Under the pieces are notes generated by a model. The model was not told where the DNA came from, did not search any database, and was given only the letters and a program-made list of their open reading frames with translations. Shown piece after piece: positions 5,924 through 50,065 of a stretch of 64,000 nucleotides of DNA. Source of the DNA: Shigella phage TB004. Location: the sequence record MW822011. One strand, written 5' to 3'. A program made the translations under genes and the position numbers. Each line of letters starts with the position of its first letter. The first letter of the stretch is position 1.

Positions 5924-6169
5924 GTGGAAATAACTAAAGATCAGTTTTATCTTCTTCAAGATAAAGTAAGCGAAATTTATGAAATAGCTTATAGCAAAAA
6001 TCGCAAAAATGTGAAAACTGAATCAGGCAAGTTAATGCTTCAATTGGAAGAAATTGAACGAGATTTGATTGCGTTAGAATTCTTTTGTGGTGAAGTAAAA
6101 ACTGTTACAATCAGTGATTATGTTTTAGGTGAAATTAGCTATCTTTATAAGGCGGTTATTAATGATTGA
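5924..6169 (+). CDS. hypothetical protein at the dexA.2 position (GTG start)
   Basis: ORF track frame 5909..6169; GTG at 5924 after gaggaag SD; paralog of the next ORF. Confidence 0.45.
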   Translation: MEITKDQFYLLQDKVSEIYEIAYSKNRKNVKTESGKLMLQLEEIERDLIALEFFCGEVKTVTISDYVLGEISYLYKAVIND

Positions 6170-8272: not shown

Positions 8273-8770
8273 ATGATTATTAATATTGGTGAAATTGCTC
8301 GTGTATCTGATAAATCCCGTTCTAAAGCAGCAGGAAAATTGGTTGAAATTGTAAGCATTCAGCTTAAACATGGTGTTAAAGATGAAGATTCTGAAGTAAA
8401 AGTGCGTATCATTCCTAAAGATGGAAAGTCTAAACCTCAGTTTGGCTATGTTCGTGCGAAATTTCTTGAGTCTGCGTTTTTGAAAGCTGTTCCTGCTAAA
8501 GGAATTGAAACGATTGATACTTCGCATGTAGGTGTAGACTTTAAGTGGAAACTCGGTCAGGCTATTAAGTTCGTTGCTCCTTATGAATTCGAATTTACTG
8601 AAGATGAGGAAGGGGTTGTTCAAAAACATCGTACTCGTGCTATGTGTGCATACATTACTGATCAATGGGTAGAAGATGGCGTTAAGCTGTACAACGCGGT
8701 ATTTTTAGGAACATACAAAGTCATTCCTGAAAGTTGGATTAAACACTATAGTAAAGCTCGCTGTGCATAA
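8273..8770 (+). CDS. motB: MotB-like protein (165 aa), assigned by synteny and size
   Basis: ORF track; position between the dexA cluster and gene 39 as in T4. Confidence 0.45.
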   Translation: MIINIGEIARVSDKSRSKAAGKLVEIVSIQLKHGVKDEDSEVKVRIIPKDGKSKPQFGYVRAKFLESAFLKAVPAKGIETIDTSHVGVDFKWKLGQAIKFVAPYEFEFTEDEEGVVQKHRTRAMCAYITDQWVEDGVKLYNAVFLGTYKVIPESWIKHYSKARCA

Positions 8771-9768: not shown

Positions 9769-10029
9769 ATGAAATATATTAATCGTTCTATCGCAGCATT
9801 AGTATTAGCAGTGTCTTTAGCAGGATGTACTGATGCTGATAATGCAACCAAAGTTTTGTCTTCAAGTGGTTTTACTAATATTGAAATCACTGGATATAAT
9901 TGGTTCGGTTGCTCTGAAAATGATTTCCAGCATACTGGATTTCGTGCTATTGGACCTACCGGGCAGAAAGTAGAAGGAACAGTATGTTCTGGTCTATTCT
10001 TCAAGGATTCGACTATCCGTTTTAAATAA
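9769..10029 (+). CDS. putative lipoprotein (86 aa)
   Basis: signal peptide with lipobox LAGC (MKYINRSIAALVLAVSLAGCTD). Confidence 0.55.
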   Translation: MKYINRSIAALVLAVSLAGCTDADNATKVLSSSGFTNIEITGYNWFGCSENDFQHTGFRAIGPTGQKVEGTVCSGLFFKDSTIRFK

Positions 10030-17121: not shown

Positions 17122-17337
17122 ATGAAAATCTTTAAAGATGTAAAAGTTGGTGAAATTTTCTGTTTAGATAATGGTGATCAGTTAATTCGTATTTCACCTC
17201 TTAAGAGCACTAGCGAGAAAATGACAGTTAACGCTACTTTAGCAAATAACAGTAATGAACGTTTCTGTATTGAAAATGATACTGAAACTTATACTGTAGA
17301 AGAATTCTGGGAATTAAGTGTCGACTGCGACGATTAA
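17122..17337 (+). CDS. hypothetical protein (71 aa)
   Basis: ORF track. Confidence 0.5.
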   Translation: MKIFKDVKVGEIFCLDNGDQLIRISPLKSTSEKMTVNATLANNSNERFCIENDTETYTVEEFWELSVDCDD

Positions 17338-17396
17338 TTTATCGGCCGTGTGTATTCATGCGGCCTTGGAGTAGAAAATAATTAGAGGAAATTAAC

Positions 17397-17852
17397 ATGA
17401 AATACATGACTGTTACTGATCTGAATAATGCAGGCGCAACTGTTATTGGTACAATCAAGGGCGGTGAATGGGTTTTTGGAACTCCGCATAAAGACATTTT
17501 GTCTAACCCTGGATTTTACTTTTTAGTGAGCAAATTTGGTGGTCCATTTGATAGTCCGTGTGTATCTGCACGATTTTATGTAGGTAATCAGCGTTCTAAA
17601 CAAGGGTTCAGTGCAGTTCTAAGTCATATTCGCCAGCGTCGATCTCAGCTTGCGCGTACTATTGCAAATAACAATGTTCCATACACAGTATTTTATCTAC
17701 CTGCTTCTAAGATGAAACCTCTGACGACGGGATTTGGAAAAGGTCAGTTAGCTTTAGCGTTTACTCGTAATCATCATTCTGAGTATCAAACGCTTGAAGA
17801 AATGAATCGTATGTTGGCTGATAATTTTAAATTTGTTTTGCAGGCATATTAA
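17397..17852 (+). CDS. ndd: nucleoid disruption protein Ndd (151 aa)
   Basis: N-terminus [25 protein letters not shown]; length equals T4 Ndd. Confidence 0.9.
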
Positions 17853-17932
17853 TGAGCAATTTCCATAACGAACATGTGATGCAGTTCTATCGTAACAATC
17901 TTAAAACTAAAGGCGTCTTCGGACGCCAGTGA
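17852..17932 (+). CDS. stp: Stp peptide (26 aa), not in ORF track
   Basis: [26 protein letters not shown] matches T4 Stp as I recall it; 3' end of the ORF forms a UUCG hairpin. Confidence 0.8.
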
Positions 17933-17939
17933 GGAAAAT

Positions 17940-18098
17940 ATGAATATTGCGAAATTATTAGGAGTTATTTCATTTATTTGTTGGATAGTAGCATGTGTTT
18001 TAACTATCTGTATCGATGCTAGCAGTGTGTTTTCACAAGCTTTAGCCCAGGGTATGTGTGCATATTTAACATTTGTGTTGTTATCTACTAATGATTAA
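17940..18098 (+). CDS. ac: small membrane protein at the ac position (52 aa)
   Basis: gaggaaaat SD; hydrophobic; position between stp and 52. Confidence 0.5.
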   Translation: MNIAKLLGVISFICWIVACVLTICIDASSVFSQALAQGMCAYLTFVLLSTND

Positions 18099-18231
18099 GA
18101 AAATCTTGGGCTACTCAGTAGCCCTTGCTGCTTTATTGGTAGCACTATATTATGGAGTAATGTTCGGATTAATTCAAGTCGTGCTTTTCATTTCTGATGT
18201 TATTATGGCACTACATTCACTAGTATGGTAA
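18091..18231 (+). CDS. small hydrophobic protein (46 aa), not in ORF track
   Basis: MIKKILGYSVALAALLVALYYGVMFGLIQVVLF. Confidence 0.3.
   Translation: MIKKILGYSVALAALLVALYYGVMFGLIQVVLFISDVIMALHSLVW
18183..18206 (+). promoter_or_regulatory. possible MotA-dependent middle promoter for gene 52
   Basis: TGCTTTtca box about 12 bp upstream of tattat. Confidence 0.3.
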
Positions 18232-18235
18232 ATTT

Positions 18236-19564
18236 ATGCAACTGAATAATCGCGATTTAAAAAGTATCATTGATAATGAAGCACTGGCTTATGCTATGTA
18301 CACGGTTGAAAATCGTGCTATTCCAAATATGATTGATGGATTTAAGCCAGTCCAACGATTTGTTATTGCTCGAGCTCTTGATTTGGCGCGAGGAAATAAA
18401 GATAAGTTTCACAAACTTGCTTCTATTGCAGGCGGTGTAGCGGACCTTGGATATCATCATGGTGAAAACTCTGCGCAAGATGCGGGGGCTTTGATGGCTA
18501 ACACTTGGAATAATAACTTTCCTTTGTTAGATGGTCAAGGAAACTTTGGTTCTCGTACCGTTCAAAAAGCAGCAGCAAGTCGTTATATTTTTGCTCGTGT
18601 AAGTAAAAATTTCTATAGTGTATATAAAGATACTGAATATGCTCCGGTACATCAAGACAAAGAACACATTCCGCCTGCTTTCTATTTGCCTATTATTCCT
18701 ACCGTTCTTCTTAATGGTGTTTCCGGTATTGCAACTGGTTATGCAACTTACATTCTTCCTCATAGTGTTTCTTCTGTCAAGAAAGCTGTACTACAAGCTC
18801 TTCAAGGAAAGAAAGTAACTAAACCGAAGGTAGAATTCCCAGAATTTCGTGGTGAAGTCGTTGAAATTGACGGTCAATATGAAATTCGTGGAACGTACAA
18901 GTTTACTTCACGAACTCAAATGAATATCACTGAGATTCCGTATAAGTATGATCGTGAAACTTACGTGAGTAAAATCTTAGACCCGCTTGAAGATAAAGGC
19001 TTCATTACATGGGATGATGCTTGTGGTGAGCATGGGTTTGGCTTCAAGGTTAAATTCCGTAAAGAATATTCTTTGAGCGATAACGAAGAAGAACGTCATG
19101 CGAAAATTATGAAAGACTTTGGATTGATTGAGCGTCGTTCTCAGAATATTACAGTCATCAACGAGAAAGGAAAGCTGCAAGTTTACGATAACGTAGTTGA
19201 TTTAATCAAAGACTTCGTTGAAGTTCGTAAAACTTATGTTCAAAAACGAATTGATAACAAAATCAAAGAAACTGAATCAGCATTTCGTTTAGCCTTTGCC
19301 AAGGCACATTTCATTAAGAAAGTAATTTCAGGTGAAATTGTTGTGCAAGGTAAAACTCGCAAAGAACTGACCGAAGAACTTTCTAAAATTGATATGTATT
19401 CTTCTTATGTTGATAAACTAGTTGGAATGAATATTTTTCATATGACTTCTGATGAAGCAAAGAAACTTGCTGAAGAAGCTAAAGCTAAAAAAGAAGAAAA
19501 TGAATATTGGAAAACTACTGATGTAGTTACCGAATACACTAAAGATTTAGAGGAAATCAAATGA
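18236..19564 (+). CDS. 52: DNA topoisomerase II medium subunit gp52 (442 aa)
   Basis: GyrA-like N-terminus with active-site Tyr region; length equals T4 gp52. Confidence 0.95.
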   Translation: MQLNNRDLKSIIDNEALAYAMYTVENRAIPNMIDGFKPVQRFVIARALDLARGNKDKFHKLASIAGGVADLGYHHGENSAQDAGALMANTWNNNFPLLDGQGNFGSRTVQKAAASRYIFARVSKNFYSVYKDTEYAPVHQDKEHIPPAFYLPIIPTVLLNGVSGIATGYATYILPHSVSSVKKAVLQALQGKKVTKPKVEFPEFRGEVVEIDGQYEIRGTYKFTSRTQMNITEIPYKYDRETYVSKILDPLEDKGFITWDDACGEHGFGFKVKFRKEYSLSDNEEERHAKIMKDFGLIERRSQNITVINEKGKLQVYDNVVDLIKDFVEVRKTYVQKRIDNKIKETESAFRLAFAKAHFIKKVISGEIVVQGKTRKELTEELSKIDMYSSYVDKLVGMNIFHMTSDEAKKLAEEAKAKKEENEYWKTTDVVTEYTKDLEEIK

Positions 19565-24014: not shown

Positions 24015-24032
24015 AGAGGGCCGAAGCCCTCT
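24015..24032 (-). other. UUCG-tetraloop hairpin in the 37-38 intercistronic region
   Basis: mRNA sense AGAGGGCUUCGGCCCUCU followed by aaggauuuuuaAUG. Confidence 0.5.
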
Positions 24033-28497: not shown

Positions 28498-28524
28498 AAG
28501 AAAAAAGGGAACCCGAAGGCTCCC
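28497..28524 (-). terminator. hairpin plus U-run after gene 35
   Basis: mRNA sense GGGAGCCUUCGGGUUCCC followed by UUUUUUCUU. Confidence 0.5.
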
Positions 28525-28529
28525 TCAAT

Positions 28530-45819: not shown

Positions 45820-47408
<1,589 letters not shown>

Positions 47409-48843: not shown

Positions 48844-50064
<1,221 letters not shown>

Positions 50065-50065
<1 letters not shown>

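Follow-up and report, generated by a model that had tools for sequence, protein, structure and literature searches.

The ndd-stp-ac-52.1-52 region of a T4-like phage genome segment, with a UUCG hairpin embedded in stp

The Stp peptide of bacteriophage T4 is the first example of a phage anti-restriction factor sensed by a host guard system, triggering abortive infection, and it is still cited as a model for newer 'decoy' or guard systems. The T4 post-transcriptional review (PMC3014915, which cites the source study of Penner et al., 1995) describes Stp as both required and sufficient for activating PrrC, a latent tRNA-Lys anticodon nuclease, in prr+ E. coli; the peptide targets EcoprrI, the type Ic restriction enzyme that keeps PrrC masked. 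A second enzyme inhibited by Stp is EcoR124I; type Ia enzymes are not affected, and the block applies to restriction, with modification left intact (PMC3014915). Suppressor or loss-of-function missense mutations cluster at residues 4–14, removal of the eight C-terminal codons lowers activity only moderately, and among T4 relatives the N-terminal 18 residues are almost invariant and the tail is polymorphic (PMC3014915). T4 outlasts PrrC by means of its Pnk and Rnl1 enzymes (PMC3014915). The neighbouring T4 gene ac, with a product of 51 aa, makes infection acriflavine-sensitive, and its deletion leads to resistance; Ac has been proposed to interfere with AcrAB-TolC efflux (bioRxiv 10.1101/2025.06.30.662393). 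It was also in T4 mRNA that the 'extraordinarily stable' C(UUCG)G hairpins were first discovered (Tuerk et al., 1988, recounted in PMC4371310).

In the window analysed here, a stretch of 64,000 nucleotides, five consecutive plus-strand ORFs fill positions 17397–19564: ndd, encoding a nucleoid disruption protein of 151 aa (17397–17852; PF06591, E = 6.4e-89; 145/151 residues identical to T4 Ndd); stp, encoding the Stp peptide of 26 aa (17852–17932, stop codon included); ac, encoding a hydrophobic membrane protein of 52 aa (17940–18098); 52.1, encoding a conserved, predicted membrane protein of 46 aa (18091–18231); and gene 52, encoding the medium subunit of topoisomerase II, 442 aa (18236–19564; PF00521, E = 1.7e-76), which shares 439/442 residues with T4 gp52 (440/443 positions when the stop codon is counted). 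The order is identical in the T4 reference genome (NC_000866), where stp, ac and 52.1 measure 81, 156 and 141 nt, respectively, and where the minus strand corresponds to the plus strand of the window. Direct alignment with T4 from ndd through 52.1 gives 794 identical bases of about 839. A megablast search with positions 17300–18400 matched 555 phage records, nearly all of them T4-like, from phages of Escherichia, Shigella and Yersinia; identity over this 1.1-kb region was 97–98% in the best Tequatrovirus records. These matches identify the window, on sequence grounds, as a segment of a Tequatrovirus (T4-like) genome. We put the probability that the segment carries the T4-like series ndd-stp-ac-52.1-52, with stp encoding the 26-residue Stp, at about 0.97, and no evidence contradicting the gene identities was met. 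The stp/ac/52.1 locus is already known: these are textbook T4 genes, nearly unchanged here, and the finding is correct but ordinary.

An earlier note on this DNA had recorded a 26-codon ORF at the position of stp and had matched its translation to T4 Stp. Both its coordinates and its translation hold, and the match proved exact, the product of this ATG-initiated ORF being identical to T4 Stp (NP_049878) at 26/26 residues. Divergence from T4 Stp on alignment, which the note had named as grounds for abandoning the match, is absent at the amino-acid level, and the two nucleotide differences between the genes, AGC/AGT at codon 2 and CAT/CAC at codon 8, are both synonymous. The peptide matches PF08133 ('anticodon nuclease activator') over positions 1–26 of 26 (E = 2e-21, 75.3 bits against a cutoff of 25 bits) and falls in PHROG 6763 (E = 4.4e-21); it is hydrophilic and basic, with a GRAVY score of -1.03. 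Residues 1–26 being those of T4, the conserved N-terminal 18 residues, including positions 4–14 in which the mutations cluster, are intact, and the gene lies between ndd and ac, as in T4-like phages. Relatives of Stp were sought by tblastn against phage records and with back-translated DNA patterns. By tblastn, 422 phage records hold a Stp at least 99% identical to this one. Within the invariant N-terminal part, relatives vary only at third codon positions, with no change of amino acid.

The two ORFs after stp had been presented in the same note as small hydrophobic ORFs at the position of ac. Both are indeed hydrophobic and the first is ac, but the second is a separate T4 gene, 52.1; that all three ORFs fall below a 60-aa cutoff is borne out by their lengths of 26, 52 and 46 aa. 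Ac matches 51/51 residues of T4 Ac and has one inserted threonine, giving a C-terminus of …LLSTND versus …LLSND in T4, caused by a 3-nt indel. It belongs to phrog_2501 (E = 3.7e-25; GRAVY +1.42), and no Pfam family matched it. The ac product would be a small membrane protein making infected cells acridine-sensitive, and its loss would lead to acridine resistance. The gp52.1 protein is identical to that of T4 at 45 of its 46 residues, matches PF24129 (DUF7396) over positions 1–46 of 46 (E = 1.6e-22, 79.8 bits against a cutoff of 27 bits) and falls in phrog_3595 (GRAVY +1.74); the mechanical ORF list extends its frame to a TTG at 18073, and the 46 aa are counted from the ATG at 18091. The 5′ end of 52.1 contains a strong hairpin of its own, GGGCTAC-TCA-GTAGCCC (18108–18124, -11.4 kcal/mol), in the codons for Gly-Tyr-Ser-Val-Ala.

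At the first junction of the locus, the TAA stop codon of ndd and the ATG of stp share one base (TAATG), and only a weak AGG lies upstream of stp, an anatomy from which translation of stp is probably coupled to termination at the end of ndd. The TGA of stp (17930–17932) overlaps the GAGG Shine-Dalgarno motif of ac, read from the sequence at 17931–17934 on the plus strand, which ends 5 nt before the ATG of ac. The ac and 52.1 genes overlap by 8 nt (ATGATTAA), and 4 nt separate the stop codon of 52.1 from the start of gene 52.

Given its 100% identity to the tested T4 peptide, Stp would be expected here to activate PrrC and to relieve type Ic restriction. As in T4, it would bind and inhibit the type Ic restriction enzymes of the host (EcoprrI, EcoR124I); in prr+ hosts, inhibited EcoprrI would unmask the latent anticodon nuclease PrrC, PrrC would cut tRNA-Lys 5′ to the wobble base, and polynucleotide kinase/phosphatase and RNA ligase 1, both encoded in the window, would reverse the damage. 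These companion tRNA repair genes lie on the plus strand and are rnlA, for the sealing half (gene 63, RNA ligase 1; 46203–47408; PF09511, E = 6.2e-25; PF20819, E = 1.3e-39), and pseT, for the healing half (polynucleotide kinase/3′-phosphatase; 49157–50065; PF13671, E = 8.6e-23; PF25109, E = 4.2e-60). The mechanical ORF of rnlA begins with TTG, but an ATG further inside is probably the real start. With rnlA and pseT both in the window, the phage-encoded half of the circuit is complete; PrrC and EcoprrI are encoded by host genes and are absent from the window. The presence of intact stp, pnk and rnlA in a phage predicts its behaviour on prr+ hosts.

The odds are roughly even that Stp is mainly an anti-restriction factor directed against type Ic restriction-modification systems, PrrC activation being the counter-move of the host; this is a question of emphasis, not of identity. 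T4-type DNA is hmC-glucosylated and largely immune to type I restriction already, which puts the benefit of such a factor to a T4-like phage in doubt. The peptide is labelled 'type IC restriction inhibitor' in record MZ501052, it relieves restriction by EcoprrI and EcoR124I with modification unaffected (PMC3014915), and its family is kept in many phages, some of which (Kagunavirus) have no adjacent repair gene. The anti-restriction emphasis is not in conflict with the main explanation, in which PrrC activation and type Ic restriction relief go together.

The 3′ coding end of stp contains ggcgtcttcggacgcc at 17912–17927 on the plus strand, which confirms the UUCG hairpin described in the earlier note. 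It folds as GGCGUC-UUCG-GACGCC, with a 6-bp stem (17912–17917 paired with 17922–17927) and a TTCG loop (17918–17921), and it lies within stp codons 21–26, spanning codons 21–25 and the first base of codon 26. The stop codon of stp is 5 nt downstream of the stem, and the GAGG of ac begins 3 nt past the end of the hairpin. With its UUCG loop, C-G closing pair and stable stem, the structure is of the C(UUCG)G type; it is found in the minimum free energy fold of its 51-nt context (-12.3 kcal/mol, z = -2.67, 1/200 shuffles as good) and also in that of a 94-nt context. The window contains 10 C(UUCG)G hairpins with a stem of 5 bp or longer, whereas 200 Markov simulations yielded 0.31 ± 0.55 (maximum 3), and CTTCGG occurs 30 times, against 14 expected. 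These hairpins are located at 10029, 15310, 15539, 17912, 54378, 55259, 59199 and 61340 on the plus strand and at 24015–24032 and 28505–28526 on the minus strand. Of the nine others, seven sit in intercistronic spacers, either spanning a stop codon or just past one; the stp hairpin stands out by its location within a reading frame. Three of the hairpins (15310, 17912 and 55259) have the same GAGGAAAAT(..)ATG ribosome-binding module 3–4 nt past them (consensus: hairpin, a(c/g)tGAGGAAAAt, ATG), which suggests that the hairpin and GAGGAAAAT together form a reused hairpin-RBS cassette.

From its anatomy, the stp hairpin appears to be a local RNA element of a kind common in T4 mRNAs and not a terminator, and its most likely role is to stabilise the transcript or to prevent pairing of the neighbouring ribosome-binding site of ac. 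No published role for it was found, and UUCG hairpins are not mentioned in the T4 post-transcriptional review (PMC3014915). Its conservation was followed in stp loci gathered from phage records, IMG/VR contigs and metagenomes by a scan for the back-translated core HNEHVMQ, the covariation sample being 19 distinct T4-like stp DNA sequences with a GVFGR tail. In this sample, all 114/114 stem cells are paired, the loop alternates between UUCG and UUUG, and the changes in the stem, which lies in conserved codons, affect three pairs, each on one side only, to G.U and by transition. No both-sided (compensatory) substitutions occur among the 19 sequences, the shuffle control being uninformative, and covariation therefore cannot separate RNA-level from codon-level conservation.

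The hairpin could, on this evidence, be a by-product of the codons for the tail GVFGRQ, with no role at the RNA level. The lack of compensatory double substitutions fits such an origin, as does the finding that the stem changes are all transitions, which are the most frequent mutations, and the GVFG tail is kept at the protein level in Kagunavirus too, so the peptide itself is somewhat constrained. However, Kagunavirus phages encode their KTKGVFGK tail with the codons GGA GTG TTT GGA AAA, in which the UUCG hairpin cannot form, so the peptide does not force the structure; by the genetic code, a fully paired stem would result from only about 1 in 48 of the synonymous ways to encode GVFGR and the base after it, even with G.U allowed. 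Furthermore, the four synonymous stem positions all stay pairing-competent in the 19 sequences, whereas 14 third positions vary in codons 1–20, the window has about 30 times as many C(UUCG)G hairpins as expected, the hairpin-RBS module of stp is found again at two other sites, and loss of the eight C-terminal codons reduces Stp activity only moderately (PMC3014915). An origin as a codon by-product is rather unlikely, though it keeps some weight. The preferred view of the stp hairpin, held with moderate confidence only, is that of a lineage-specific and probably beneficial RNA stability or RBS-insulating element. The Tequatroviruses fHoEco02 and SHFML-26 have another Stp tail, NFGILG(S/F)KNS, and no hairpin, with ac directly downstream; the hairpin is therefore dispensable for the locus. 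In a further, smaller reading, selection may act on the hairpin as an RNA module and so hold the codons of the T4-type tail fixed.

A terminator consensus scan flags the stp hairpin on the reverse strand only (GGCGTCCGAAGACGCC then TTTAGTTTTA). On the plus strand, the stem is followed by AGUGAGGAAAAUAUG / AGTGAGGAAAAT, with no U-tract, and the hairpin lacks the signature of a rho-independent terminator, a G+C-rich hairpin followed by a U-tract on the transcribed strand; the label of 'putative terminator' is unsupported because the coding strand has no U-tract past the stem, and the hairpin was rejected as a terminator. That it could nevertheless be a rho-independent terminator, and the surrounding 26-codon frame no gene, is highly improbable. 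In its favour, the record of phage G50 (NC_054917) lists this hairpin, together with one inside 52.1, under 'putative transcriptional terminator' without any CDS for stp or 52.1, several records leave stp without a CDS, and the reverse strand is terminator-like. Against it, the genes that follow immediately on this strand are ac, 52.1 and the essential gene 52, the product of the frame matches at 100% identity the T4 Stp defined by genetics and biochemistry, the variation of the frame across relatives, in its invariant N-terminal part, is at synonymous third positions only, and the reverse-strand T-run corresponds simply to the Lys-Thr-Lys codons.

Peptides of 25–31 aa with the functional core (F/W)HNEHVMQ(F/W)(Y/H/W)R and unrelated tails are found in the T1-like Drexlerviridae, in Kagunavirus and other siphophages of roughly 45 kb, where they are mostly unannotated. 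All seven of the variant peptides tested passed the gathering score of PF08133 (34–70 bits), the match being confined to residues 1–18, the functionally mapped part, in the Drexlerviridae forms and the KRIKEQMLSRKE variant, and phrog_6763 was matched by 3/3 non-T4 forms scanned against PHROGs. In Drexlerviridae (Tunavirus, Tlsvirus, contigs of about 50 kb), the peptide is of 26 aa, M/V-S(S/N)…(L/I)NSTNC, and is followed by a terminator-like hairpin. This form is present in at least 120 phage records, and most of those listed have no feature over it; it was located at 1501–1581 in L006 and L007, at 8214–8294 in L012, and in further loci (L013–L017, L023, L025, L027, L028, L031, L036, L038, L040, L042, L050, L052, L061, L065, L067 and L070). 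A gene of the polynucleotide kinase family lies 0.4–0.8 kb downstream in 2/2 Drexlerviridae loci examined (pnk at 2380–2943 in L007 and a pnk-like gene at 8724–9296 in L012). The Kagunavirus peptide (genomes of about 43–44 kb) has 25 aa, ends in (L/M)KTKGVFGK and is almost identical to T4 Stp; it is encoded at 6052–6129 in L072, at 12484–12561 in L033 (Raoultella phage RP180), and in L024, L029, L030, L035, L045, L048, L049 and L054. Its gene is flanked by the lysis cassette and the terminase, and its surroundings contain no pnk; the stop codon of the gene shares bases with the ATG of the small ORF that follows (ATGA), and in L022 and L057 the peptide is fused in frame to this ORF (74 aa).

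Stp tails are modular, with NFGILG(S/F)KNS in some Tequatroviruses (28 aa) and KRIKEQMLSRKE in one metagenome contig; variant-tail loci were recorded at 701–787 in L002 and L004, 291–371 in L044, 1408–1503 in L047 and 418–513 in L078. In a 31-aa form from Drexlerviridae-like contigs, a remnant of the NSTNC tail, cacgaattgctaa, is found just beyond the new stop codon, suggesting that this form arose by frameshift. Dhakavirus-like genomes contain a second copy of stp without an ATG of its own (593–775 in L005, NC-G; 6401–6535 in L032; 4316–4450 in L037), which in NC-G stands in frame behind a 52.1-like N-terminus (MIKKSWATVLR-SNFHNEH...); this arrangement indicates a tandem duplication of the stp/ac/52.1 module, with the copy possibly decaying or fused. 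Nine metagenome pattern matches (L043, L055, L056, L058, L069, L073, L074, L076 and L077) were discarded as chance matches in repeats or unrelated frames.

The scans show that the Stp family extends beyond T4-like phages; we would suggest, tentatively, that its siphophage members, should they prove active, extend the contest of type Ic anti-restriction with anticodon nucleases to enterobacterial phages at large. No literature tying Stp to Drexlerviridae or T1-like phages was found in the library searched, and such a link may already have been published elsewhere. Activity of the siphophage peptides would make this trigger-and-repair contest general among enterobacterial phages and not a peculiarity of T4. 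The only mildly new points are ones of context: the hairpin-RBS module whose UUCG hairpin lies inside a coding frame, and the finding that Stp-like peptides are more widely distributed than annotations show.

The annotation of this region is uneven among relatives, and stp and/or 52.1 are unannotated in many public records. A 60-aa ORF cutoff misses stp, ac and 52.1, and so do many automated pipelines; for the window itself the finding matters little, these genes being found in hundreds of sequenced relatives. 'Naphthalene 1,2-dioxygenase' appears in the feature lists over the region in MK886800, MH809535, OQ446694, MZ502380, ON645936 and NC_054917, among the named records. It was rejected as an identity for stp: the label belongs to the ndd CDS and is a mislabel, as seen in OL964735, the one such record inspected.

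Set beside its T4 counterparts, the locus departs from them in few places. The T4 stp gene also stands between ndd and ac, overlaps the ndd stop codon by one base, contains the hairpin and shares its genome with pnk and rnlA; it differs from that of the window by two synonymous nucleotides only. T4 Ac (NP_049877) is likewise hydrophobic, with the same position and the same 8-nt overlap with 52.1, but has 51 aa, whereas the window form has 52, with a threonine near the C-terminus (STND versus SND); an ac CDS of 159 nt, corresponding to the 52-aa form, is annotated in phage fHoEco02, as in the window. T4 gp52.1 (NP_049876) is encoded directly upstream of gene 52, as here, and differs by a single Leu-to-Val change at residue 10, because of which the hairpin inside 52.1 is one pair longer in the window than in T4, where it has 6 bp and a 5-nt loop. 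The stp hairpin resembles the C(UUCG)G hairpins of T4 mRNA in its UUCG loop, C-G closing pair and G+C-rich stem.
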